The translations under genes and the position numbers were made by a program. A DNA stretch of 64,000 bases, taken from NCBI RefSeq assembly GCF_030685025.1, contig NZ_JAUXWC010000105.1; one strand, 5' to 3'. This stretch comes from Rhodoferax sp. GTDB taxonomy: Bacteria; Pseudomonadota; Gammaproteobacteria; Burkholderiales; Burkholderiaceae_C. Every line of letters begins with the position of its first letter. The first letter of the stretch is position 1. Positions 5,993-63,773 of this stretch are shown in pieces. The notes beneath the pieces are model-generated. The model was not told the origin of the DNA. It did not search any database and worked only from the letters and a program-made list of their open reading frames with translations.

Positions 5993-6120
5993 GTGCGTTC
6001 CTTAATTTGTCGGGGACAGCGCTAACGACCTGTCCCGCAAGGTTTCAATCTGGTTGCCGGCCGGGGAGCTTGTCGCTTACCGCCCCGGCGCGTCACGCCA
6101 AGTTTGCGTTCAGGGGTGCA

Positions 6121-6942
6121 TTATGAATCCAAAGCTGCGCGGATATTTCGCAGGAAGTCGCCCGCCACCCGGACCACCTCGGACCGGGGCTGGTCCTCAA
6201 TGAGCTCAATCAGGCGGCTTCCGATGACGACCGCATCGGCGACAGCGCCGATGGTGCGGGCGGTGGCCGCATCGCGTATGCCAAAGCCCACGCCGACGGG
6301 TAGGCTCACGTGCTGGCGGATGCGCGGCAACATGGCCTCGACCGAAGCGGTGTTGAGCGTGCCTGAGCCGGTGACCCCTTTGAGCGAGACATAGTACACA
6401 TAGCCACTGGCGACGCGCTGGACCAGTTCCATTCGTTCGTCGGTACTGGTCGGGGCGAGCAGAAAGATCAAGTCCAGCCCCGCGGTTCTGAGCTCAGCGG
6501 CAAAACCTTCGCATTCTTCAGGCGGGTAGTCGACGACCAGCACACCATCCACACCGGCCGTAGCGGCATCGCGCACGAAGGCACTTTGGCCGTCGTGGGA
6601 CGCGCGCCGCTGGTTGTAGCGCTCAATCGGGTTGGCGTAGCCCATCAGCACGACCGGCGTGGTGGCGTCGTTCGCGCGAAACTCCCTCACCATGGCCAGC
6701 ACGTGGCTCATGCCAACACCAAAGCCCAGCGCCTTGTCCCCGGCGCGCTGGATCACCGGGCCGTCGGCGCTGGGGTCCGAGAAGGGCACGCCGAGTTCGA
6801 TAACGTCAGCTCCGGCCGCCACCATGCCGTGCATTAATTCGGGCGTGATGTCGACAAAGGGAAAGCCGGCCGTCACATAGGGAATCAGGGCCTTGCGTCC
6901 CTGTGTCTTGAGTGCTGAGAAGGTGGATGCGATGCGGCTCAT
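6121..6942 (-). CDS. trpA: tryptophan synthase alpha chain
   Basis: 273 aa with the TrpA pattern ([26 protein letters not shown]). ATGA overlap with the trpB stop. Confidence 0.95.
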
Positions 6943-8243
6943 TTCACCGCCTTGATGGTTTGTTGCTTGCTGGCGGCATCACCCTTTACTGACTGGCCCT
7001 GGCAACTTGGGCGACAGAAGAAGTCGGCGCCGCTCAGGTCGGCAACCGTGCCGATGTCCTTGTCGCCGCGCCCGGAAAGATTGACCAGAATCGATTGATC
7101 CTTGGACATGCTCTTGGCGAGTTTCATGGCATGGGCCACCGCGTGGCTGGACTCCAGGGCGGGGATGATGCCTTCGGTCCGGCACAGGTAGTGAAAAGCC
7201 GCCAGGGCTTCGCTATCGGTGATGCCCACATACTCGGCGCGACCGATGTCCTTCAGAAAGGCGTGTTCCGGTCCGACCCCAGGGTAATCCAGTCCGGCAC
7301 TGATGCTATGGGTTTCGGTGATCTGGCCGTTGTCATCCTGCAGTACATAGGTGCGATTGCCGTGCAACACGCCGGGGCTGCCGCGCTGCAGTGAGGCGCT
7401 GTGCTTGCCGCTGTCAATGCCTTCGCCCGCGGCTTCCACGCCGATCAGGCGTGTGTCCTGGTGGTCAATGTAGGGGTAAAAAATACCCATGGCGTTGCTG
7501 CCGCCACCGACGCAGGCCACCACGGCATCGGGCTGACTGTTGCGGCAACCCTGCGCCTGCAGCATCGCAGGCAATTGCAGCAGGCATTCCTGGCCGATCA
7601 CGCTCTGGAAGTCGCGCACCATCATGGGGTAGGGATGCGGCCCCGCGACGGTGCCGATGATGTAGAAGGTGTTGTCCACGTTGGCAACCCAGTCGCGCAT
7701 CGCTTCGTTAAGAGCGTCTTTGAGCGTCCTGCTGCCGCTTTCCACAGGCACCACGGTCGCGCCCAGCAGTTTCATGCGGTACACATTGGGGCTTTGGCGC
7801 TTGATGTCTTCGCTGCCCATGTAGACCACGCATTCAAGCCCATAGCGGGCGCAGATGGTCGCCGTGGCGACACCGTGCTGGCCCGCGCCGGTCTCGGCAA
7901 TGATGCGTGGTTTGCCCATGCGTCGGGCCAGCATGGCCTGGCCAATGGTGTTATTGACCTTGTGTGCGCCGGTGTGATTGAGGTCTTCGCGTTTAAGGAA
8001 GATCTGGGCGCCCCCCTGCTCGCGGCTCATGCGCGCGGCATGGTAGACGGGGGAAGGGCGGCCCACAAAGTGCGCCAGTTCGTACTTGAATTCAGCGACG
8101 AAGGCCGGGTCGTGCTGATACTTGGCGTAGGCGGCCTTGAGTTCGGTGATGGCGTGGGTCAGGGTCTCCGAGACAAAACTGCCGCCGTAGATGCCAAAGT
8201 GACCGCTTGGGTCAGGTTGTTGGTAATTCCCGTGGAGTGACAT
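6939..8243 (-). CDS. trpB: tryptophan synthase beta chain
   Basis: 434 aa with the PLP-lysine region ([16 protein letters not shown]) and GGGSNAMG. Confidence 0.95.
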
Positions 8244-9117
8244 GGACTAATTCTTCAAGTTGCTTGTCTGCCGCACGCACGGCGGCGACGAATTGATTGA
8301 TTTTTTCGGGGTCCTTGAGGCCCTGGTTGCCTGGACCAGACACCTCGACGCCCGAACTTACATCAACGGCCAGCGATAGACACCGTGGCCGAACCTGGAG
8401 AATGCCGCCAAGCACATTTGCAGCAGTGAGTCCACCACTCAAGACGAGGTGAGCGTTGACGTTTGCTGGAAGAAGTGACCAATTGAAAACCTTGCCTGCG
8501 CCACCATAACCGTCGACATGGGCGTCGAGCAGAATGGCTTGGGCGTTTGAATATTCGTGGACGTATTTTACGAGGTCGAAGCCGCCACCTGCTTCGCCCA
8601 AGGGAATGCGGGCGGCACGCAGATAGGGGCGAGCGCCGCCGCGTGTGGCCTGGAGGCAGTCCTCGGGTGATTCGTCGCCATGGAATTGCACCACTGCGTT
8701 GGGGATCAGTGTGCAGGCATCGATGGTTTGTTGGGCAGGCTGGTTGACCACCAGCAGCACGGGTGTGACAAAGGGTGGCAGGCGCCGGCTAAGTTCGCGG
8801 GCGCGTTCAGGTGTCACGCAACGAAGGCTCCTGGGATACAAGACAAAACCGATGGCGTCCACGCCAGCGGCAACCGCGGCATCGACGTCTTGCTCACGTG
8901 TCAGGCCGCAGATCTTGATGCGGGTACGCGCAAGCGCGGAAAATCCGCCGCTGGGCCGCCCCAAGGCGGATTGCGCCCCCTCGGGGGGCAGCACAGCAGA
9001 CGAAGTCGCAAGCGTGGGGGCAACCAATCCGCCGCTGGGCCGCCCCAAGGCGGATTGCGCCCCCTCGGGGGGCAGCGCAGCAGACGAAGTCGCAAGCGTG
9101 GGGGCATTGTTCATCAT
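8212..9117 (-). CDS. trpF: phosphoribosylanthranilate isomerase; the start is uncertain because of a repeat insertion
   Basis: The core TrpF sequence starts at [13 protein letters not shown]. The longest ORF starts at ATG 9117, in an ATGA overlap with the truA stop, and reads through two 28-aa repeat-encoded units. Alternative in-frame TTG (8964) and GTG starts lie inside the repeat. Confidence 0.85.
8942..9104 (+). repeat. tandem pair (period 84 bp) of a 79-bp REP-like element
   Basis: Unit 1 is 8942-9020 and unit 2 is 9026-9104, and they are near-identical. Shared blocks are GGGCCGCCCCAAGGCGG, GCCCCCTCGGGGGGCAGC and GCAAGCGTGGGGG. The same family occurs at 24873 and 49939. Confidence 0.85.
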
Positions 9118-9896
9118 GGCAAGCCATCATAGCCACACGTCTGCTCTGGCAGGCCCCAGTGCGCGGCATAGCGTGGTCCCAGAAAGTACAGGCCATCCGG
9201 TGAGAAAGTTGGCGCCGCCGCTCTTCGGTCATGCGCCAGCAGCACCTCAGTCATCCACTCTGGCGACTGGCGGCCTTGACCGATGTAGACCAGGCATCCC
9301 ATGATGTTGCGAATCATGTGGTGCAAGAACGCATTGGCTTCAAACTCGAATCGCCAATACGCCCCGCGCCGCGAGATGTTGATATGGTGAAGACTCTTGA
9401 CGGGCGACAGGGCCTGGCAGGCCGAAGCGCGAAATGAGCTGAAGTCGTGCTCACCGATGAGTCGCTTCGCGGCTTGCTGCATGGCGTTGATGTCCAGTGG
9501 CCTGCAAGACCAGCCCACTGTGCCCGCTTCGAAGCTGGGCCGTACGGGTGACTCGAGCAAGGCATAGGCGTAGCGTCGCGACAGGGCACTGGCTCGGCAG
9601 TGGAATTCGGCTGGCACCTGTCTGGCCCACTGCACGGCGATGTCCCGAGGCAGCAGTGCGTTGGGGCCGCGCACCCACGCGTGGGCGGGCCGTTGCACGT
9701 CGGTGTCGAAGTGAATCACTTGCATCACACCATGTACACCGGCGTCGGTGCGGCCACAGCACAGGGTCGAAATTCGCGTCGCGGCGAACTTGCTCAAGGC
9801 AATTTCAAGCTTGTCCTGAACTGTCTGACCGGACGCCTGGCTTTGCCAGCCTTGGTAGGGCTGTCCGTTGTAGCTGACTGCGAGGGCCAACCTCAC
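9114..9896 (-). CDS. truA: tRNA pseudouridine(38-40) synthase
   Basis: 260 aa with a GTG start. Has the TruA pattern (GRTDAGVHG catalytic Asp region). Confidence 0.9.
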   Translation of the reverse strand: MRLALAVSYNGQPYQGWQSQASGQTVQDKLEIALSKFAATRISTLCCGRTDAGVHGVMQVIHFDTDVQRPAHAWVRGPNALLPRDIAVQWARQVPAEFHCRASALSRRYAYALLESPVRPSFEAGTVGWSCRPLDINAMQQAAKRLIGEHDFSSFRASACQALSPVKSLHHINISRRGAYWRFEFEANAFLHHMIRNIMGCLVYIGQGRQSPEWMTEVLLAHDRRAAAPTFSPDGLYFLGPRYAAHWGLPEQTCGYDGLP

Positions 9897-9943
9897 GGCG
9901 AACTCACGCCGCAGTCACGACTGGATCGTGACCGCGATGCCCA

Positions 9944-12541
9944 TTACAGGTTGCTCAGGGCGCGCTGCGCCTTGGCTTTCATGTCGCCGGAAGCCTCTTC
10001 GATGACTTCTTCGATCAGCGCACGTGCGCCGTCTGCGTCGCCGATGGCGCTGAACTCTTCAGCCAGGGCGAGCTTGGTCGCCAACGGATCCTCGCTGGTG
10101 GCTGGCGCCTGCGCAATGACGGGTTGCTCGGTGTCCCCACCAAGATCGAGCGACAGCGACTCCAGGTCAAACTCCAGCATGCCTGCGTCGGAAGTCGCTG
10201 CGGCAGGCTGCAGTGTGGCTGCCGGCAAGGGCACGGGCGTGGTCATGCCAAAGCTTGTGGCTGCCTGGGCCTTGAAGTCCTCTGCATCGGCACTCGACAG
10301 GGTCAGCTCGTTGTTGGGCATCTCCAGATCGGGCAGTGAAAAGTCTGCGCTGCTCGGGAGTTTGGCGGTCGCGTCGGCGTCGGACTGCATGTACAGCGGC
10401 ACCGTTGCCACGCTGGCTGCGCGCATGCTCACCGTGGGATCCGTAGCATTGGACGAGGTTGCTGGCGAAAAGGCGCTGGCGGGTTCGTCGTCGAGCGAGA
10501 AATCAAGATCCAGGTCCAGATCCATGGTCGCGCCGGGAGCCGAGGCAACCGGCATGGTGTTGTCAGACGCGCTGTAGGCAGGCTCCAGTGGAGCCGGGCG
10601 AGAGGAGAGGTTGTCCAGCCCGCTGGGCTGACCACCTGGCTGGTAGAGCCCGTTTGTCGGATCGATGCTCAGGCCCAACTCACAAATACGGGCCCAATCG
10701 GCGCCGTCGCCGCCGGTGAGTTTGTAAGCCTGACCAGCCACACCCTCAAAGCCCTTTGTGTCGCGCCGTTTCGCGTAGATCTCAAGGAGTTTCTGGTGAA
10801 TGGCAATGCGACTGGAATTGGTCCGAAGTGCCTCCTTGAGGATTTCCTCTGCCTGCAAGTCGCGTCCGTACGCCAAATAGACATCAGCCTCGGCTACCGG
10901 ATCCACGTCGTCCGCAGCGTCAAGCTGGCTGGGCGAGTAGACCATCGACGAACCAGTGGCGGCGCTGTCGTTCGTGTCGACGCGCTGTCCGCCGCTGGTA
11001 CCAAAGAACGAATCGGGTTGCAGGCGGCTTTCCAGGAACGCGCTGTCGACCTGCGACGCCTTCTTGCGTTGGCGCATGCGATAGAAGCCAAATCCGGCCA
11101 GCAAGGCGATCAGACCGACTGCACCTGCAGGCGCCAGCGGGTTATCAAGCAAGCCATCTATCACATCGGGTTCGGGCGGTGGGGGCGCAGGGGCGACCGC
11201 ACGTTTGACTGGTACCGAAGCAGCGGGCGCGGGCATGGCCGCTGACGCCGCTGGGGCTGGCGCGGGCACCGGCGCAGCGGCCGGCGCGACCGATGCAGCA
11301 GGGGCAGGAACAGGAGCGGCTGCAGCCGGTGGAGCAACCGGCGTCGGCGCACTGGCCGTCAGAACCGGAGCAGCGACGGGCACGGTTGGAGCGACCGTTG
11401 CCTTGGCGGGGCTGGCGGGCGCCGCTGGTGCAACGGGTTTGGATGTGGCGCCGATCTTGCCCAGTTCTGCGATGTTCTTGGATAGCTCCGCAGCCCGGCT
11501 TGCGGCTTCTTTCGCACTGCGATCCATGGCGATCTGGACTTCACTCGGTTTGCCTTGGACGGCACCCTTGGAAAGGGTCAACTTGTCGGGCGCCGCCGTG
11601 CCCGGTTTCTTGTCCTCGACTTTGGCCTGCACCGTGCCAGTTGCCTTGCGATCCGCGGCGGCGACCGTGGCCGTGGGTGCGTCGCCCGCCAACTTGCGTC
11701 GGAAGTCGTTGAAATCCTTGCTCTGGGCCACAATCATCTGGCTTGCTTCGTGCGAAGGGGTGGCGCCCGCCTGCTCGGCATTGGGTACGTCCAAGACCGC
11801 GCCAGCCTTCATCCGATTGATGTTCGCGCCTATGAAAGCGTCTGGATTTGCGCGCAGCAGTGCGACCAGCATCTGGTCCAGCGAGACATTGGCTGGTTTG
11901 GTGGCTGCAGCGATTTTGCTGGCGGTGTCGCCAACCTTGACCTTGACTTGACGCTCACCATCGGGCGTGGTTTTGGTCGGGGCGGTCGGCGCGGGTCTGA
12001 CCGAAGGCTTGCGCACCTCGGTGGGACTGGCGGTTGCCGCAACGGGCGGCTGAGGCCGTGGCGTTGCCGTCGCAGCGGGCGATAGTTGCGCAGGGGTTTG
12101 AGTCGCCGGTGCGGCGGCGCGCAGGTTCGGCGGATCGAACAGCATTGTGTAGTCCCGCACAATGCGTCCTGAAGCCCAACTGGCTTCGATAATCATGTCG
12201 ACAAAAGGCTCATTGATCGTGCGGTCACTGCTGAGTCGGATGAACGCTCGCCCATCCGGACGTCGCTGCATGGACACTTGCAAGCTGGACATCGCCGCGT
12301 TGTATTCGAGGCCGGCCGCGCGAAACGCCTCTGGAGAGGCCACCGTGGCTTTCAGGGTCGACGCTTCCTCGGCATTGATCTCCGGAATTTCGATTTCAGC
12401 CCGCAGCGGCTCGCCGATCGACGATTGAACAGTGATTCGGCCCAATGACAAGGCGATGGAGTTTGTAGCCCAAAGGCCGAAAACCGCCGCGGTTGCAGCC
12501 GCCATAGCGGTCTTCTGCCAACGTTGTGACTTAGCAATCAA
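9944..12541 (-). CDS. fimV: FimV/HubP-family polar landmark protein
   Basis: 865 aa. It has a signal/TM N-terminus, the FimV N-domain (LGRITVQSSIGEPLRAEIEI) and a LysM-like segment (VKVGDTASKIAAA...). A long Pro/Ala-rich linker, a TM segment, a TPR-like region and the acidic FimV C-terminal motif follow. TTG start with GGAG upstream. Confidence 0.85.
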   Translation of the reverse strand: MIAKSQRWQKTAMAAATAAVFGLWATNSIALSLGRITVQSSIGEPLRAEIEIPEINAEEASTLKATVASPEAFRAAGLEYNAAMSSLQVSMQRRPDGRAFIRLSSDRTINEPFVDMIIEASWASGRIVRDYTMLFDPPNLRAAAPATQTPAQLSPAATATPRPQPPVAATASPTEVRKPSVRPAPTAPTKTTPDGERQVKVKVGDTASKIAAATKPANVSLDQMLVALLRANPDAFIGANINRMKAGAVLDVPNAEQAGATPSHEASQMIVAQSKDFNDFRRKLAGDAPTATVAAADRKATGTVQAKVEDKKPGTAAPDKLTLSKGAVQGKPSEVQIAMDRSAKEAASRAAELSKNIAELGKIGATSKPVAPAAPASPAKATVAPTVPVAAPVLTASAPTPVAPPAAAAPVPAPAASVAPAAAPVPAPAPAASAAMPAPAASVPVKRAVAPAPPPPEPDVIDGLLDNPLAPAGAVGLIALLAGFGFYRMRQRKKASQVDSAFLESRLQPDSFFGTSGGQRVDTNDSAATGSSMVYSPSQLDAADDVDPVAEADVYLAYGRDLQAEEILKEALRTNSSRIAIHQKLLEIYAKRRDTKGFEGVAGQAYKLTGGDGADWARICELGLSIDPTNGLYQPGGQPSGLDNLSSRPAPLEPAYSASDNTMPVASAPGATMDLDLDLDFSLDDEPASAFSPATSSNATDPTVSMRAASVATVPLYMQSDADATAKLPSSADFSLPDLEMPNNELTLSSADAEDFKAQAATSFGMTTPVPLPAATLQPAAATSDAGMLEFDLESLSLDLGGDTEQPVIAQAPATSEDPLATKLALAEEFSAIGDADGARALIEEVIEEASGDMKAKAQRALSNL

Positions 12542-52811: not shown

Positions 52812-53269
52812 TCAGCGGTCGCCGCCGCCGGTGGCGGGGCTGCCACCGCCACCGCTGACTACGGCTACGTCCGCGACTTGGCCGCGGTGCCAGACCTCCA
52901 CGACGTCACCGTCGGCACGGCGGAGGTCGATCTCCTCGATGGCGGTGCCGTCATCGCCAAACCAGCCGGTGGCGACGACGAGGTCGGCCAGGGCTGGTGC
53001 GCCGGGCCGTACGACCTGGTCATCCGCCCAGCCGTTGCAGCAGCGCGTTGGCGAGACCCTGGGCGTCGTTGCGTTGCCAGCCGATGCGCGCGCTGCGCCG
53101 AAACGCCGATGCTGCATCGTCCCCGCGCCGCATGCAGATGAATACGCGCCTGATGCCAGGCGATCTGCATCCGGCCGACCCAATTACCGTCCTGCCGCGC
53201 CGCCCGCTCGCAGTTGTCGTCGAAGACGGTGATGGCCTCGGTATCGCGGCCCAGCCAGGCCCAGGCCAC
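52812..53269 (-). pseudogene. uncharacterised small gene interrupted by two +1 frameshifts (or sequencing errors)
   Basis: Protein-like composition and G/C-ending codons jump between frames. Frame 1 runs from GTG 53269 (VAWAWLGRDTEAITVFDDNCERAARQDGNWVGRMQIAWHQARIHLHAAR). Frame 2 reads DDAASAFRRSARIGWQRNDAQGLANALLQRLG. Frame 3 reads DDQVVRPGAPALADLVVATGWFGDDGTAIEEIDLRRADGDVVEVWHRG... up to the stop at 52812. Confidence 0.35.
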
Positions 53270-53310
53270 CGCCGACGCAGCGGTGCGACCGTGGCGAGAC
53301 GGTGACAGTG

Positions 53311-53787
53311 TCAGCGGCTGGCGGGTCGTTCAGCGCCCGCGCTGGTCGCGTTGATCGTGATGCCGCGCTTGCGCAATTCGTCGACCAGGAGCTTGGCATT
53401 CGGGTTGCCGGCATCGGCCATGCGCTGGGTGTCGGCGGCCAGTGCGTCGAGCGACGCGCGCAGCTTGCCGGCGTTATCGACGGTCTGCTGCAGCGACGCA
53501 TGCGCGGCCAGCAGGGCCGCGCGCTCGCCGATCAGCTGTTGTGTCTGAAAGCCGAGCCAGCCCAGCACGGCCACTGCACCCAACAGTACCGGGACGAACG
53601 GGCTGCGTACCGACGCCGCTGTTGCCGCCGGCGACGAGCGCGAATTAGATCGCGAACCGCGGCTGCGCTCGGGCAGCGCCGGCGGCGCCAGGGTGTCGGC
53701 GCCATCGGTCGCACCGACATCGTGACCGACGTCGTGTGCGGCGCTGTCCTGGGCGGGGGTGGCAGGTAAATTGACGACGTTTCTCAT
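53311..53787 (-). CDS. uncharacterised single-pass membrane protein X2 (158 aa)
   Basis: ATG at 53787 after AAGGA. About 60-aa Ser/Arg/Ala-rich N-tail, TM segment FVPVLLGAVAVLGWLGF, then a helical C-domain ending KLLVDELRKRGITINATS. It is a paralogue of X1. Confidence 0.6.
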   Translation of the reverse strand: MRNVVNLPATPAQDSAAHDVGHDVGATDGADTLAPPALPERSRGSRSNSRSSPAATAASVRSPFVPVLLGAVAVLGWLGFQTQQLIGERAALLAAHASLQQTVDNAGKLRASLDALAADTQRMADAGNPNAKLLVDELRKRGITINATSAGAERPASR

Positions 53788-53803
53788 GGCCGATCCTTTG
53801 CAG

Positions 53804-54109
53804 TCACTTGCGCTGCGGCGTTGCCGGGGCGGCCGGCGCCGCGGGGGCGTTGACGCTGTATGTGATGCCATGTCGCTGCAGAAGAGCCTTGACGTCACCG
53901 TCGTTGTTGCGCGCGCCCAACTCGGCCAGCGCCCGGATGATCTCGCGGTACAGGCCTTCGAGCTGCACCGACTGCTGCACATACTGCTGGCGTTGGGTGA
54001 CGTCGGCGCGTGCCGATCCGTTGCTGTGGCCCAGCGCGACATTGGCGGCCATCGCCGCCAGGCAGGCCGTGGCAAGCACGGTCGCGATCCAGTATTGGAG
54101 ACTGGTCAT
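53804..54109 (-). CDS. uncharacterised single-pass membrane protein X1 (101 aa)
   Basis: ATG at 54109 after GGAGAA, 22 nt after the stop of the giant gene. N-terminal TM segment YWIATVLATACLAAMAANVAL, helical domain ending VKALLQRHGITYSVNA, then a Pro/Ala tail. Confidence 0.6.
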   Translation of the reverse strand: MTSLQYWIATVLATACLAAMAANVALGHSNGSARADVTQRQQYVQQSVQLEGLYREIIRALAELGARNNDGDVKALLQRHGITYSVNAPAAPAAPATPQRK

Positions 54110-54131: not shown

Positions 54132-57100
54132 TCAATGCACCTTGGCGCGCCGGCGCCGGGCCACGAACGCGGCCGCTGCGGCCAGCACCAGCAGGTGAAT
54201 CGTGCCTGGTTCCGGCACCGTGCCGCCGCTCTGGTCGATCACGTTGGCGCTGATCACCAGGCGCCGGCTCAGCGCGCGGCCACTGGGGTCGGCGGCGTTG
54301 GTGCTGACGTACTTGAAGTCGATCACGCCCTCGAAAAGGCCTACGGTCGAGGCCAGGAAGCCGATGTCGAGGTTGCCGGTGGCCTGCCCCGCCGCGAGCC
54401 CGGTCACCTCGCCCCAGCCGGTGCAGCTGAAGTCGTCGGCGTTGGTCAGCAGGTCGAACAGGCCGCTCAGGTCGTCGGCGGGCCCGGCGACATCGTTGTC
54501 CAGCCGCAGCGACGTCAAGATGCTGTTGCCGAGCACGATGTTGCCGAGGTTGAGGAGGTAGTTGCTGCCCGATTGCGTGAGCAGGCCCAGCCCGGCGAGG
54601 ATGTCGAAGTCGGCGTTGGCCAGGTTGTTGATCTGGGCCTTGACCTGCACGCTGCCGTTGGCGCCGGCCGAGATGTCGGCCAGGTCCGGGTTCTGGCTCA
54701 GGAAAGCCACCGAGCCGGCCTGGTTGTAGACGCCGGCGCTGGCCGTGTTGAGACCGACGGCGATGGCGGCGCCGGCCTGCGCTCCGATGCCGCCGGCGCT
54801 GCCGCCGCCGGTGAACGGGCCGCTGACGCCGCTCAGGTTGGCGCGCAGCGTGTCGTTCAGCGCCGTCACGGCCGCGGTGTTGTTGACCACGATGTTCCGT
54901 GCGCTGACGGTGTCGCCGACGCGAACGACGCCGAAGTCCAGCGTCGTCGTCGCCAGCTGGCCGATGGCCTGGGTGTAGACCTTGCCGCTGACGCTGACCT
55001 GCTGGCTGGCCAGCGTGAGCTGGCAGTTCGGCGCGCAGTTGCCGACGTTGTCGGCATCGGAGACGAAGGCGAGGGTGGCACTGCCGGCGTTGCCGCCGGT
55101 GAAGTTGCCCGCGCCTGCGGTGGCCAGGCCGACCTGCAGCGCACTGCTGTTGGTGCCGCCGGGCGCCAGCAGGTTGAAACTGCCGCCGGCGGTGACGGGC
55201 GCACCGTTGCTGCTGATGCTGGCATTGAGCGCGGCCTGCGGCGCCGCGGTGGCGACGTTGGTGACGCTCACAATGGCCGTTGGCGACGCGTCGCCCACAC
55301 GCGCGGCGCCGAGGTGGATCGACGGGTTGTTGATCAGCGGGCTGGCCTGGTTGATGACGTTGGCCTGCGCCTGGATGGTGCCGGCCACGCCGTAGGCCTC
55401 GCTGCCGGCCGATGCGGTGCCCAGGTCGTTGCTGACGCCGTTCACAGCGCCCGCGGTGAAGTAGTTGACCGCGATGCTGCCGTTGACGACATTGGCGGCC
55501 GTGGTGTTGACACTGACCGTCATCGACCCATTGCCGGCGTTGCTGTTGGTGCCGGCAAGGATGCCGTTCAAGGCGCCAATACCGCTGATAAGGCCGGCGC
55601 CGACGCCGGTTGTCGTGCCGAAGCTGGCGTTCAGGTCCTCGACGAAGCCGGCCACGCCGGCGGCGGTGTTGGCGATGACCATGTTCTGCGTCACCACCTG
55701 CCCGACCTGCACGGTGCCGAAGTTCAGCGCCGTGGACAGGATCGCGCCGGTGGCGGCCTGGTAGACGTTGCCGTTGACGCTGATGGTGTGGCTGCCGGCG
55801 CCGCTGACACCCAGGCCGTTGCTGACACCGTTGACCGTGCCCGTGCTCTGGTAGTTCAAGGTCACGCTGCCGGTCTTGGCCCCGCCGCTGGCCGTGTTCA
55901 CGCCGACCTTCATCGCTGCCGCGTTGCTGGCGCCGGCCAGCAGGGCGTTGACAGCGCCGCCGTTGTTGGTTGCCGCGCCGGTGTTGGCGCCGAAGCCAGC
56001 GTTCAAGTCCTCGCTGAAGGCGCCTGCCGCCGCGGTGTTGGCCACCGTCAGCGACGCCAGGTTGCTGCCGCCGACGCGCTGGTTGGGCACCTGAATCGGC
56101 GACGACGAATGACCTGCGGCGATGTTAAACGCCGCACCCTGAATGTGTAGGGTCTGATTCTGTATGTTGTCGAAATTGCTCTTAATGTGCACGGCTTGAC
56201 CAGTCAATGCACCCGCGCTCGCGGCGTTGAATGTGACGACCTGATCGACGCTATTGCTGCCGGTTGCGATTGGATTGAAGTTGCCTGCTGTCACGCCCAA
56301 GCCTGACAAGCGGGAATCGGTGATGCTGCCGCCGTTGGCGGCGGTTTGAATCGCGCCGCGCAGTACGGGGCCGGTGGTGCCGGTGTTGGCGATCTGATAA
56401 TTCTGACTAACGTTGTCACCCACGCGAACATTGCCGAAGCTCAGCACGGGGCTAGCCGTGGTACCGCCGGTTACCGCACCGGTGATGGCTTGGCTAACAT
56501 CGCCCGCCGCTAGGATTAATCCGCCACCAGTGACATTGGCACGGCGATTGAAGCTGTTGCCGGTGCCAAAGTTAGCGTTGTCGTAATCGGCCGAAACGGT
56601 GATGTTGTACATACCCAGGTTAAGCGCGTTGGCGCTCGACCCATTATTGAGCAGGATGCCCGCCGCGCTGTTCGCGCCCAGAGTCAACACCCCGGTGCCG
56701 CTGGTGCTAGCCGTACCGGTACCGGTAAAGCCTGTGTTCGCATTGACATTGCCGCCGTTGGCGCGAATCGTGCCGCCGTTGGCAATCGCTATATTCAAGG
56801 CCAGCGTGCCGCCGCCCGTACCTTCCAGAACCCCGCTATTCGTGAGACCGCTGCCGACGACCGTGCCGCTGCCGCCGAGGGTGCCGCCGAGGGTGCCGCC
56901 GGCAGCCACCGTGACGGTCGGGCTGGTCAACTGGCCGTTGACGCGCAAGACGCCGCTGGTGACCGCGGTGCTGGTATTGAACGTACCGGTGCCGGTCAGC
57001 GTCCAGTCCGCGCCCTGCATAGAGAGCGTTTCGAAGGCGAGAAACTTCGCGATCGATTCCGTGCCGGTGCCCTGCAACACCAGATTGTCGGTGCCGGTGC

Positions 57101-58088
57101 CGCCCTGCACATTGCCGGTCAGCGCCGAGCCGGTCAGCAGATTGAGCGTGTGGGCCGAGGCGCCGGAGAATGCGATCGAGCGCCCGGTGCCGGTCGAGCC
57201 GATGGTGCCGCTGTTGTTGACCGCTGCAGGATTTGCGCCCGCCACGAACATGCCGTCGTTGCCGGACTGAATTGTGCCTGTATTCGTGAAGATGCCGCCG
57301 CCTCGAGCCTCGACAGCGGGGCCGCGCACCGACGTGATCGAGCCGTTGTTCGTGAAGGTTAGAAGAGCGGATGCGCTGGCATAAATGCCGTTATAGCCGC
57401 CGGTGATGATGCCGGTGCTGTTGTTGGTCAGCGTCGCGGCGCCGCCCTGGACCAGCACGCCGGTCGAGTAGCCGGTCGTCTTGTCGGCGTGGATTTCACC
57501 GCTGTTGACGACGGTTCGGGAAGCCCCTTGGCCGACCGAAACGGCGTTATTGCCGCCGGTCGTCGAGATCGTTCCCCCTAGATAATTGGTGACCGTGCCG
57601 CCGTTCTTGAGTGTCACGCCCTCGACGTTTGCGGTGATCGTTCCAAAATTGTCGACGCTGCCGGCGCCGCCGGCATTGAAAGTGCTGAGCACGATGCCGC
57701 TTAAGCCCGCATTGATCTGCGCACCGGCGGAATTGGTCACCGCGCCGCCCTGCGTGAATGAAATCGAATTGCCCCCTGTGACGATCCCCTGGTTGGTAAG
57801 GGTCCAGACCTGAGTCGTGGCGCTGATGCCGGTGCCGTTGAAGATGACCGTGTTGTCGACGGTCACGCCGGGGAATACGCGCGCCGTCGATCCAATAAAT
57901 GTGTCGAGATTGACGCCGGTGTTCGTGCTCGTGGTGATGTCGACATCTTCGGCGTGCGCTGTTCCGTGCAGGCCGACGACCCCTGCCGCGATGAAGGACA
58001 CAGAGGCCAACAACGATTTGCGCAACGTGCGTCGCGAACCGCGTGGCCGCGAGCAAATCACGACACCGCCATTCAGTAGCTTTTGCAT
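54132..58088 (-). CDS. giant secreted beta-helix / Ig-like-repeat protein with C-terminal PEP-CTERM sorting domain (1318 aa)
   Basis: AGGAGAG RBS, ATG at 58088, signal peptide ending HGTAHA. The N-terminal Gly/Thr/Asn-rich repeats are typical of autotransporter-like beta-helices. Six modules of the type L.FG.V.VG.......V.NT follow. The C-terminus is VPEPGTIHLLVLAAAAAFVARRRR (PEP motif, TM segment, Arg cluster). Confidence 0.85.
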   Translation of the reverse strand: MQKLLNGGVVICSRPRGSRRTLRKSLLASVSFIAAGVVGLHGTAHAEDVDITTSTNTGVNLDTFIGSTARVFPGVTVDNTVIFNGTGISATTQVWTLTNQGIVTGGNSISFTQGGAVTNSAGAQINAGLSGIVLSTFNAGGAGSVDNFGTITANVEGVTLKNGGTVTNYLGGTISTTGGNNAVSVGQGASRTVVNSGEIHADKTTGYSTGVLVQGGAATLTNNSTGIITGGYNGIYASASALLTFTNNGSITSVRGPAVEARGGGIFTNTGTIQSGNDGMFVAGANPAAVNNSGTIGSTGTGRSIAFSGASAHTLNLLTGSALTGNVQGGTGTDNLVLQGTGTESIAKFLAFETLSMQGADWTLTGTGTFNTSTAVTSGVLRVNGQLTSPTVTVAAGGTLGGTLGGSGTVVGSGLTNSGVLEGTGGGTLALNIAIANGGTIRANGGNVNANTGFTGTGTASTSGTGVLTLGANSAAGILLNNGSSANALNLGMYNITVSADYDNANFGTGNSFNRRANVTGGGLILAAGDVSQAITGAVTGGTTASPVLSFGNVRVGDNVSQNYQIANTGTTGPVLRGAIQTAANGGSITDSRLSGLGVTAGNFNPIATGSNSVDQVVTFNAASAGALTGQAVHIKSNFDNIQNQTLHIQGAAFNIAAGHSSSPIQVPNQRVGGSNLASLTVANTAAAGAFSEDLNAGFGANTGAATNNGGAVNALLAGASNAAAMKVGVNTASGGAKTGSVTLNYQSTGTVNGVSNGLGVSGAGSHTISVNGNVYQAATGAILSTALNFGTVQVGQVVTQNMVIANTAAGVAGFVEDLNASFGTTTGVGAGLISGIGALNGILAGTNSNAGNGSMTVSVNTTAANVVNGSIAVNYFTAGAVNGVSNDLGTASAGSEAYGVAGTIQAQANVINQASPLINNPSIHLGAARVGDASPTAIVSVTNVATAAPQAALNASISSNGAPVTAGGSFNLLAPGGTNSSALQVGLATAGAGNFTGGNAGSATLAFVSDADNVGNCAPNCQLTLASQQVSVSGKVYTQAIGQLATTTLDFGVVRVGDTVSARNIVVNNTAAVTALNDTLRANLSGVSGPFTGGGSAGGIGAQAGAAIAVGLNTASAGVYNQAGSVAFLSQNPDLADISAGANGSVQVKAQINNLANADFDILAGLGLLTQSGSNYLLNLGNIVLGNSILTSLRLDNDVAGPADDLSGLFDLLTNADDFSCTGWGEVTGLAAGQATGNLDIGFLASTVGLFEGVIDFKYVSTNAADPSGRALSRRLVISANVIDQSGGTVPEPGTIHLLVLAAAAAFVARRRRAKVH

Positions 58089-58105: not shown

Positions 58106-58384
58106 TTACGCGCGGGGGGCTGGCTGATTAACGCCGAAAGTGCTCACCGCCGTCGGGCCCTGAGTCGAAGTGACGGTCGAGGTTTGCCCGCCACCGATGG
58201 TCGCGGTATCGGCAGCGTCGGGCACGAAGCCGCACGACCCATTGGCCGCCACGTTGCAGTGGCCGCTGGCCGGGTTCCATGTGCAGGCGGCCGCCAGCGC
58301 GTACTGGGTGGGCGCGGCGCCGACGACGAGCAGGGCGGCCAGGGCCAGCGCGGTCTCGCTGATGGGCTCGCGGTTCGTTGCCAT
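58106..58384 (-). CDS. small secreted Cys-containing protein (92 aa), hypothetical
   Basis: GGGAG RBS and ATG at 58384. Signal peptide MATNREPISETALALAALLVVGAAPTQYALA. The mature part is ACTWNPASGHCNVAANGSCGFVPDAADTATIGGG.... The stop lies 17 nt before the giant gene. Confidence 0.55.
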   Translation of the reverse strand: MATNREPISETALALAALLVVGAAPTQYALAAACTWNPASGHCNVAANGSCGFVPDAADTATIGGGQTSTVTSTQGPTAVSTFGVNQPAPRA

Positions 58385-58447: not shown

Positions 58448-58462
58448 GCAGCGAGTGCGCCA
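58448..58462 (-). promoter_or_regulatory. candidate sigma-54 (-24/-12) promoter
   Basis: The minus strand reads TGGCGCACTCGCTGC. GG and GC have the exact TGGCAC-N5-TTGC spacing. It lies about 60 nt upstream of the small secreted-protein ATG. A chance match is possible in GC-rich DNA. Confidence 0.25.
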
Positions 58463-62782: not shown

Positions 62783-63106
62783 ATGAAAACCGAACAGATC
62801 CTGGCCGAAATCCGCGAAGCCAACCTGTCTTACCTCATGCTGGCGCAAAGCCTGATTCGCAGCGACCGCGAGCAGGCGCTGTTCCGCCTCGGCGTGACCG
62901 AGGAAACGGCGGCCCTGATCGGCACGCTGACCTCGGCGCAGATGATGAAGATCGCTGCCGGCAACACGCTGCTGTGCCGCTTCCGCATGGACGACGACAT
63001 GGTGTGGAACCTGCTCACCAACCACGGCAAGGGCGCCGCCAACGACGGCATGTCGCGCCTGCACGCCTCCATCCTGCTGGCCGGGCGCCATCAGGACGCC
63101 GCCTGA
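62783..63106 (+). CDS. flhD: flagellar master regulator subunit FlhD
   Basis: 107 aa with the pattern ILAEIREANLSYLMLAQSLIRSDREQALFRLGV. Confidence 0.9.
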   Translation: MKTEQILAEIREANLSYLMLAQSLIRSDREQALFRLGVTEETAALIGTLTSAQMMKIAAGNTLLCRFRMDDDMVWNLLTNHGKGAANDGMSRLHASILLAGRHQDAA

Positions 63107-63143
63107 GCGACCTGACTGCCAACACCGCACCGAGAATCACACC

Positions 63144-63773
63144 ATGGCCCGCAGCAAAAGCATCCTCACTGAAGCCCGGCAAATCGAACGCGCCGTGACG
63201 CTGATCCAGCTCGGAGCGCGGCTTCAGGTGCTGGAGAGCGAGACCGATCTCAGCTATGAACGCCTGCTGCGCCTGTACAAGGAAGTGGCCGGCAGGAGCC
63301 CGAGCAAGGGCCAGCTGCCGTTTTCCACCGACTGGTTCATGACCTGGCAGCCCAATATCCACGCCAGCCTGTTCTTGAACACGCACGAGTACCTGAACAA
63401 GGTGGCGGCACTCGACGAGATCGACACCGTCATCAAGGCCTACCAGCTCTATCTCGAGCAACTGCAGACGCAGGACCTGGAGCCGCTGCTGAGCCTGACG
63501 CGCGCCTGGCGGCTGGTCAAGTTCGTCGACAACGGCATGCTCACGATGACCCGGTGCAGCAAGTGCGGCGGTCATTTCGTGACCCACCCGCACGAGATCG
63601 CCCGCCACTATGTCTGTGGGCTGTGCAACCCGCCAGCGCGCGCGGGCAAGGGCAAGCCGGCGGTGCCGCGTGCGCTGGACGTCGGCCTGGCGCTGGCCGC
63701 TGCGCCCGCGCCCGCGCCCGCCCTGCTCGGCAAGAGCCGGGCCGCGGCCCCGACGGCGCCCGGCGTACATTGA
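63144..63773 (+). CDS. flhC: flagellar master regulator subunit FlhC
   Basis: 209 aa. Has KSILTEARQIERAVTLIQLGARLQ and the Zn site CSKCGGHF...CGLC. Confidence 0.9.
   Translation: MARSKSILTEARQIERAVTLIQLGARLQVLESETDLSYERLLRLYKEVAGRSPSKGQLPFSTDWFMTWQPNIHASLFLNTHEYLNKVAALDEIDTVIKAYQLYLEQLQTQDLEPLLSLTRAWRLVKFVDNGMLTMTRCSKCGGHFVTHPHEIARHYVCGLCNPPARAGKGKPAVPRALDVGLALAAAPAPAPALLGKSRAAAPTAPGVH

Follow-up and report, generated by a model that had tools for sequence, protein, structure and literature searches.

What is the function of two small membrane proteins whose genes directly follow the gene of a large, exported PEP-CTERM protein? This question is raised by a stretch of 64,000 nucleotides (nt) from a draft genome of Rhodoferax sp. 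(assembly GCF_030685025.1, contig NZ_JAUXWC010000105.1), in the following referred to as the window. Its minus strand encodes two bitopic membrane proteins, X1 (positions 53804-54109, 101 amino acids (aa)) and X2 (53311-53787, 158 aa), downstream of a gene for an exported protein of 1318 aa with a PEP-CTERM sorting signal (54132-58088, minus strand), which is the upstream gene of the operon. PEP-CTERM/exosortase sorting occurs widely among environmental bacteria and among those that form flocs or biofilms. To our knowledge, both the attachment target of exosortase substrates and the other proteins that participate are still not known. Here we show that X1 and X2 are obligately paired and syntenic with one class of PEP-CTERM cargo, the choice-of-anchor-D proteins. 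Based on profile comparisons, the two proteins are distant paralogues of a single superfamily.

Two small membrane proteins encoded behind a PEP-CTERM gene

A sequence-only reading of the window, made before any database search, had described X1 and X2 as proteins of 101 and 158 aa with one transmembrane (TM) helix each, encoded immediately downstream of the PEP-CTERM gene. Both open reading frames (ORFs) were found at these positions, that of X2 starting at an internal ATG inside a longer open frame, and each translation contains one hydrophobic helix (residues 8-26 in X1, 62-80 in X2). The stop codon of the PEP-CTERM gene is separated from the X1 start by 22 nt and the X1 stop from the X2 start by 16 nt, with purine-rich ribosome-binding sequences in both gaps. 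In the 1318-aa protein, a signal peptide and a beta-helix-like head rich in Gly, Thr and Asn are followed by six choice-of-anchor-D domains (NCBIfam choice_anch_D, 3.2e-37 over 6 stretches) and the PEP-CTERM signal, which is matched by the PEP_CTERM model. The genome is a 5.7-Mb draft with a completeness of 99.5%. The closest relatives of its X1 and X2 genes are found in Rubrivivax metagenome-assembled genomes (MAGs) and in Ideonella sp. A 288.

X1 and X2 share a common plan. From the TM helix the chain continues through a long helix and an Asn-rich turn to a short helix and the residues G-I-T, and it closes with a Pro/Ala tail and a basic end. In X1 the N-terminal TM helix runs into a helix of ~40 residues. 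It is followed by an NNDGD turn, a short helix, HGITY, the Pro/Ala tail and a C-terminal Arg-Lys. X2 begins with a stretch of ~60 aa, made up of the conserved start M-x-[TN]-V-V-N-x-P and a Ser/Arg-rich linker, and continues with the TM helix and a long helix. A GNPN turn then leads to a short helix, RGITIN and an Ala/Pro tail whose last residue is Arg. The AlphaFold2 models place helices at residues 3-68 and 71-79 of X1 and at 64-125 and 129-140 of X2, the latter with predicted local distance difference test (pLDDT) values >90 from the TM helix onwards. The similar motif that the sequence-only reading saw at the end of both domains is present, both strings quoted for it occurring verbatim in the translations. 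The Pro/Ala tail of X1 is there as well, and so is the additional Ser/Arg-rich stretch of ~60 aa in X2, which is located at the N-terminus.

X1 and X2 form an obligate gene pair

Homologous loci were grouped into two clades. Clade 1 comprises 47 loci from species-representative genomes (Rubrivivax, Ideonella, Rhodoferax, Accumulibacter, Rhodocyclaceae and other MAGs). The second clade is defined by a deeply diverged X1 (QLSRLN type) and comprises 80 loci from soil and sediment metagenomes.

In clade 1, X2 lies directly downstream of X1 in all 45 informative loci; the remaining 2 contigs stop right after X1. The same order is found in at least 77 of the 80 second-clade loci. Among 41 pairs with assigned starts, 14 show a 4-nt overlap (ATGA/GTGA) and 14 more a gap of 0-30 nt. 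This order and overlap would fit translational coupling and equal dosage of both products, as for the subunits of a heteromer.

The pair follows one class of PEP-CTERM cargo

A homologue of the PEP-CTERM protein of the window adjoins the pair in 38 of the 47 clade-1 loci, nearly always directly upstream (it is located downstream in L039 and apparently in L027). Three further loci have no upstream sequence. A PEP-CTERM protein with choice-of-anchor-D domains is the immediate upstream neighbour in ~90% of the informative clade-1 loci. In the second clade, a PEP-CTERM gene ends just before X1 in 13 of the 73 loci with upstream sequence (18%). For comparison, PEP-CTERM genes make up well below 1% of the genes in the 5.7-Mb genome of the window, in which ~10 were detected. 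An all-against-all clustering of the neighbours returned the choice-of-anchor-D PEP-CTERM family as the sole one recurring in both clades.

The partner proteins range from ~250 to 2900 aa, choice-of-anchor-D domains being common to all of them. Moreover, the last ~250 aa of the PEP-CTERM protein of the window are also found in the small PEP-CTERM proteins beside second-clade pairs. As these domains are shared whatever the size, the partner is defined by its cargo class and not by giant size. The tie between pair and PEP-CTERM gene, proposed from the window alone, is therefore borne out, whereas the supposed preference for giant exported proteins is not. The co-occurrence itself is limited, too: it covers the 38 of 47 and 13 of 73 loci given above, and the pair also exists without such a neighbour.

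X1 and X2 are distant paralogues at the profile level

The sequence-only reading had taken X1 and X2 for paralogues. Pairwise comparison of the two proteins of the window gives a marginal result, which was not taken as a basis for paralogy. BLASTP reports an E-value of 0.08 for an alignment on a different segment that leaves the common motif unaligned, and Smith-Waterman alignment with 2000 shuffles yields p ~0.04 when the full proteins are compared and ~0.02 when only the domains are. A first hhalign run with small alignments reached a probability of 48% (P 1.8e-4). These values favour the alternative that X1 and X2 are not homologous and owe their likeness to convergence on a TM helix, a helix rich in Gln and Ala and a tail of low complexity.

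The larger profiles speak against convergence. When 42 C-terminal regions of X2 were aligned to 46 X1 proteins, all drawn from the 47 genome loci, hhalign gave a probability of 90-94% (P 2e-7 to 1.7e-6) over 92-95 colinear columns, in an identical register from the TM helix through G-I-T. As a control, the alignment columns were permuted only within segments (TM helix, helical domain, tail), so that composition and segment order were retained. This reduced the score from 44.4 to 13.8 ± 2.6 (maximum 21.8; none of 150 shuffles reached the observed value), and the reversed alignment scored 19.2. Likewise, a hidden Markov model (HMM) of X1 scored a mean of 10.1 bits on real X2 domains and 0.5 bits on segment-shuffled ones, and an HMM of betaproteobacterial X2 matches X1 proteins of the distant clade with E-values down to 2e-5. 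The architecture of the AlphaFold2 models is the same for both proteins. We thus consider convergence very improbable. Paralogy holds at the level of profiles and not in pairwise alignment. The non-significant BLASTP match, an outcome that the sequence-only reading itself had named as speaking against paralogy, is overridden by the family-level evidence.

Conservation and membrane anchoring

The homologue alignments reveal near-invariant stretches in both proteins, namely RQQ[YF]VQQSVQLEGLYREI.RALAEL.ARNND in X1 as well as F.P.LL...A..GW.GFQ and QQTVDN..KLR.SLD.LAADTQR.A..GN..A..LV.EL.KRG.TI in X2. The TM helix of X2 is unusually conserved (F64, P66, L68, L69, A73, G76, W77, F80, Q81), as expected of specific intramembrane contacts. 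Near-invariance of almost every position in the 45-residue helical hairpin, and likewise in the X2 TM helix, points to close packing against protein on several faces. The charges flanking the X2 helix (+2.1 on the N side vs +1.1 on the C side) favour an N-in orientation.

The ends of the proteins are more variable. Lys is the last residue of X1 in 116 of 119 close clusters, 97 of which end in Arg-Lys, after a linker of variable length. Among 150 representatives of the wider X1 family, 37% have Lys and 21% Arg in the last position, and many members carry Pro, Gln or Glu there. The X2 proteins of the second clade have K-Q or G-N at their end. With only ~100 aa, X2 of divergent lineages is X1-like in length, which indicates that the long N-terminal tail of the X2 in the window is a later addition. 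X1 was also considered as a lipoprotein. This was ruled out because its Cys16 is located inside the TM helix and is replaced by Ser, Ala or Gly in homologues.

A sizeable family without annotated relatives

Judged from sequence searches, X1 and X2 represent a sizeable unannotated family. In a protein collection clustered at 90% identity we found 478 homologues of X2 and 450 of X1, all of them unnamed or "hypothetical". A HMMER scan of 1.84 billion representatives with the X1 profile resulted in 867 clusters at 50% identity with E-values up to 1e-3, of which 499 have E-values up to 1e-10. In reference genomes the X1 family is rare. X1 was found in 3 of 150 genera of its family sample (one match being weak), and a search of 400 genomes sampled across the phylum gave 0 matches. 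The distribution is hence drawn from metagenomes. A word-based search with a divergent X1 sequence returned no matches.

The sequence-only reading could assign neither protein to a known family, and the searches agree with it. The best Pfam matches are far below the cut-offs (E 0.039 for X1, 0.15 for X2). NCBIfam, including its PEP-CTERM-associated TIGR/NF models, has no match for X1 and one with E 0.098 for X2. None of 22 second-clade members scanned individually against Pfam and NCBIfam came near a cut-off. PDB sequence profiles gave matches only to designed helical repeats and dpy-30 at chance level, while Foldseek against the PDB found nothing for X2 and only E >=2 for X1. A search of the literature on the X1-X2 pair found nothing.

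Two candidates were examined and discarded. A match of the X1 profile elsewhere in the same genome (contig C16, E 0.04) corresponds, by reading, to the C-terminus of a HemY-like protein with the segment ALAELAERRDD and is a chance similarity. A 205-aa protein from a low-GC organism (P0331) contains an X1-like and an X2-like half joined by a single Ile, both matched by the X1 HMM. If this were a Rosetta-stone fusion of X1 and X2, its second domain would end up on the wrong membrane face. The gene call has probably merged two overlapping genes.

Regulators and other neighbours

A second companion is restricted to clade 1. This protein of 900-1000 aa combines an OmpR-type winged helix (wHTH) with a STAND NTPase domain and TPR repeats. 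In 17 loci its intact gene either follows X2 or precedes the cargo gene. In the window only a relic is left. A frameshifted 3' part (53038-53293, minus strand) begins 17 nt past the X2 stop, within the 450 nt separating X2 from the convergent folE2. By tblastn, the 967-aa regulator of locus L016 gives a frame -1 match over its residues 801-874 (E 4e-15) and a frame -2 match over residues 849-885 (E 3e-10), whereas ~800 codons of the 5' part are gone. The position of the relic after X2 implies that the order cargo-X1-X2-regulator once existed here and that the regulator was lost. Another contig of the same genome (G000 C106, locus L147) encodes a paralogue of the STAND regulator that is intact. 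There, a small PEP-CTERM gene (249 aa, 6006-6755, minus strand) is divergent from a gene for a LuxR-type regulator (6827-7813, plus strand) and the STAND paralogue (7738-10656, plus strand), with no X1-X2 pair nearby. The STAND regulator family thus seems to be linked to PEP-CTERM genes in general.

Other neighbours are confined to few loci. In L052, L055 and L056 the pair follows genes for a hybrid histidine kinase that carries a solute-binding sensor, for a receiver-kinase and for a LuxR-type response regulator. In two loci from sediment metagenomes (L090, 6704-10683; L123, 3027-7021) it is followed by genes for an OmpA-like protein and a convergent Hanks-type kinase, and a divergent CHAT/haemagglutinin-like gene lies ahead of it. 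This kinase is 37-39% identical to the Hanks kinase domain of the window, and the arrangement echoes the block of kinase and OmpA lipoprotein upstream of the operon in the window. Hanks kinase and OmpA-like genes were nevertheless rejected as parts of the module, as they are found near the pair in no clade-1 locus and only in L090 and L123. Many second-clade loci have no informative neighbour, and in many the pair is placed among unrelated metabolic genes.

Upstream of the cargo gene, an ORF of 92 aa (58106-58384, minus strand) stops 17 nt ahead of the 1318-aa gene. Its tblastn matches fall within the 5'-terminal parts of the giant ORFs in L011, L023, L024, L045, L043, L022 and L039 (E 5e-21 to 5e-10). 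The ORF corresponds to the signal peptide and first repeats of giant proteins elsewhere and is a detached head fragment, while the giant protein of the window starts with a different signal peptide. This homology suggests a replacement or rearrangement at the 5' end of the cargo gene in the window. About 60 nt upstream of the 92-aa ORF we noted a candidate sigma-54-type element with -24/-12 spacing, TGGCGCACTCGCTGC (TGGCGC-N5-CTGC, 58448-58462, minus strand), read directly from the sequence. It is plausible as an RpoN promoter of the operon. RpoN dependence of PEP-CTERM genes has been described in relatives, e.g. for pepA of the related floc-former Aquincola (PMC9850573). A strict search for the motif did not recover it consistently upstream of the giant genes in other loci.

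At the far end of the window, flhD and flhC, the flagellar master regulators, were identified by eye (62783-63773, plus strand). They are divergent from the minus-strand block, which consists of genes for a GlcG-like protein, the Hanks kinase (identified by Pfam) and the OmpA lipoprotein as well as the PEP-CTERM operon.

Exosortases in the genomes that carry the pair

The genome of the window encodes an exosortase and ~10 PEP-CTERM proteins. An exosortase is also present in 8 of 10 other carrier genomes tested and in all 3 X1-positive genera of the 150-genus family sample. In one genome, G068, which is nearly complete in 4 contigs, the cargo-X1-X2 module lies immediately beside a canonical XrtA/EpsI polysaccharide locus on the same strand. 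This locus comprises genes for a polysaccharide export protein, a Wzz-like protein, a tyrosine-kinase-like ATPase and an AAA ATPase, together with those for a DUF3473 deacetylase, a FemAB-like protein, a glycosyltransferase and an exosortase fused to DUF3485/EpsI (PF11984).

The cargo gene of G068 itself (L145, contig G068:C4, 15055-19898, minus strand) is split into three open frames in succession, and its PEP motif is a VPVPP variant. A frameshift or a misassembly may lie behind the split.

Proposed role and alternatives

We tentatively favour a role of X1-X2 as a heteromeric, cargo-specific accessory of choice-of-anchor-D PEP-CTERM surface proteins in the inner membrane, acting as a dock or holder. 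On this basis the pair may represent an accessory variant within the PEP-CTERM/exosortase system. The complex, its topology and its action are what we infer from the findings above. X1 and X2 would be made together from translationally coupled genes and would assemble as a heteromer in the inner membrane. Each subunit is predicted to be N-in/C-out, its single TM anchor continuing as a ~40-residue helix into the periplasm, where the chain would fold back via the Asn-rich turn to the short helix ending in G-I-T, followed by the flexible Pro/Ala tail with its basic end. After Sec export, the cargo would be pinned in the inner membrane by its PEP-CTERM helix until the exosortase acts. During this time the pair could dock on the membrane-proximal C-terminal end of the cargo through TM-TM contacts and the small periplasmic hairpins. 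Its most economical partner would be the part found in all associated cargos, namely the last choice-of-anchor-D module plus the PEP-CTERM helix. The pair might then hold or present the cargo for processing by the exosortase, or retain it afterwards. In clade 1, the cytoplasmic tail of X2 with its conserved N-terminal peptide may in addition signal to the co-encoded wHTH-STAND-TPR regulator which state the complex is in.

Several observations weigh against this accessory role. The adjacency of pair and cargo gene could reflect co-regulation only. Four loci (L051, L052, L055, L056) have no PEP-CTERM gene within ~10 kb of the pair, and ~80% of the second-clade loci have none just upstream. The charges flanking the X1 helix leave its topology undecided. 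No exosortase was found in 2 of the carrier MAGs, whose completeness is not known. Moreover, exosortases already occur in 68 of the 150 genera (45%), a background that makes their presence in carrier genomes weak evidence. The pair is far rarer than the exosortase (3 vs 68 of 150 genera) and is therefore not a general part of the sorting machine.

The main rival reading, which we regard as less likely, treats X1-X2 as a signalling module, i.e. a membrane co-sensor or anti-activator similar to PspB/PspC or ToxS. The periplasmic hairpins would sense a cue from the envelope or surface, the cytoplasmic N-terminal peptide of X2 would bind to the regulator's TPR sensor, and in other lineages the pair would modulate an adjacent phosphorelay. 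STAND regulators do flank the module in 17 clade-1 loci and have left a relic in the window, but regulators commonly adjoin their target operons anyway, and the paralogous STAND regulator of the same genome stands beside another PEP-CTERM gene without X1-X2. The conserved [KR]-T-V-V-x-[LM]-P peptide at the X2 N-terminus, carried on a disordered linker, is a further point in favour of signalling. It tracks the regulator, with both present in 12 loci, neither in 6 and a discordant state in 4, counts that were partly made by eye on related, not independent loci. In loci without a giant gene the pair directly follows the hybrid kinase, the response-regulator kinase and the LuxR-type response regulator. 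On the other hand, X1 and second-clade X2 have almost no cytoplasmic part, so that the ancestral function needs no cytoplasmic tail, and the pair of the window is intact though the adjacent regulator is destroyed.

Somewhat less probable still is a small membrane-protein pair of general use, for example in envelope stress or membrane organisation, whose link to PEP-CTERM genes would be due to shared regulation or hitch-hiking. The many second-clade pairs among unrelated metabolic genes would agree with this, as would the two loci with a CHAT/haemagglutinin-like gene, an OmpA-like protein and a Hanks kinase instead. However, a cargo gene lies upstream in ~90% of informative clade-1 and 18% of second-clade loci, such genes are as rare as ~10 in a 5.7-Mb genome, and the spacing is operon-tight, all of which speak against it. 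A tether, by which X1 and perhaps X2 would join the inner membrane to peptidoglycan, appears improbable. The connection could be covalent via the C-terminal Arg-Lys (by an L,D-transpeptidase, Lpp-like) or electrostatic via the basic end of the Pro/Ala tail. Lpp ends in Tyr-Arg-Lys, and the Lys or Arg-Lys ends of the close X1 clusters behind a linker of variable length resemble it, as does the build of X1 from a short helical stalk and a flexible Pro/Ala tail. Across the whole X1 family, by contrast, a terminal Lys is found in 37% only, with Arg and several uncharged or acidic residues in its place. X2 is mostly Arg-ended and therefore not suited to Lpp-style cross-linking, with K-Q or G-N ends in the second clade. 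Moreover, a tether offers no rationale for the PEP-CTERM link.

Comparison with known systems

In architecture and genetics, GspL/GspM of type II secretion and PilN/PilO of type IV pili may be seen as the nearest analogues of X1-X2. These proteins, too, are encoded by adjacent genes, are distantly paralogous and have one N-terminal TM helix that continues into a coiled-coil-like helix. They form heterodimers serving an export machine, and a heteromer is proposed for X1-X2 as well. X1 and X2 differ from GspM and PilO by their size of ~100 aa and by consisting of two helices only in the AlphaFold2 models, without the periplasmic ferredoxin-like domain, and no secretion or pilus genes are located nearby. 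Faint matches to GspM in 5 of 22 second-clade X1 proteins cover the TM segment and helix only and are at chance level (12.7 bits vs a cut-off of 60).

Within the PEP-CTERM system, EpsI (DUF3485), a bitopic partner of the exosortase XrtA or fused to it, is the only comparable accessory and by sequence unrelated to X1-X2. It resembles the role proposed here as an inner-membrane accessory of the system with an unknown mechanism. The EpsI model PF11984 has no match to X1 or X2. Furthermore, EpsI possesses a periplasmic domain of ~200 aa and is present wherever XrtA is, in contrast to X1-X2, which is rare and follows one cargo class.

PspB/PspC, which relay the state of the membrane to a cytoplasmic regulator, are likewise two small, adjacent single-pass proteins made together, and X1-X2 shares with them the vicinity of a transcription regulator in many loci. 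There is no homology, nor are PspB and PspC paralogous to one another. The conserved domains of X1 and X2 are predicted to be periplasmic, and the regulator is of the wHTH-STAND-TPR type rather than a sigma-54 activator. Lpp, finally, is a short all-helical envelope protein like X1, which ends in a conserved Arg-Lys in the betaproteobacterial clade. Unlike Lpp, X1 has a TM anchor and no lipobox, its terminal Lys is not family-wide, and no sequence similarity was found.

Significance for PEP-CTERM sorting

X1-X2 is a conserved two-gene module that follows one PEP-CTERM cargo class across two deeply split clades. It marks a gap in the databases, in which the 867 X1 clusters, each with a paralogous partner, are all named hypothetical. 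With two proteins of ~100 aa it also offers a small and tractable target for questions of PEP-CTERM sorting. The significance of the pair would be high only if a direct role in sorting holds and moderate otherwise. There is a slim chance that X1-X2 is the first cargo-side partner in exosortase sorting, either as a membrane dock or acceptor or as a tie to peptidoglycan via the Arg-Lys end of X1. If so, it would reveal the fate of a PEP-CTERM protein after cleavage.

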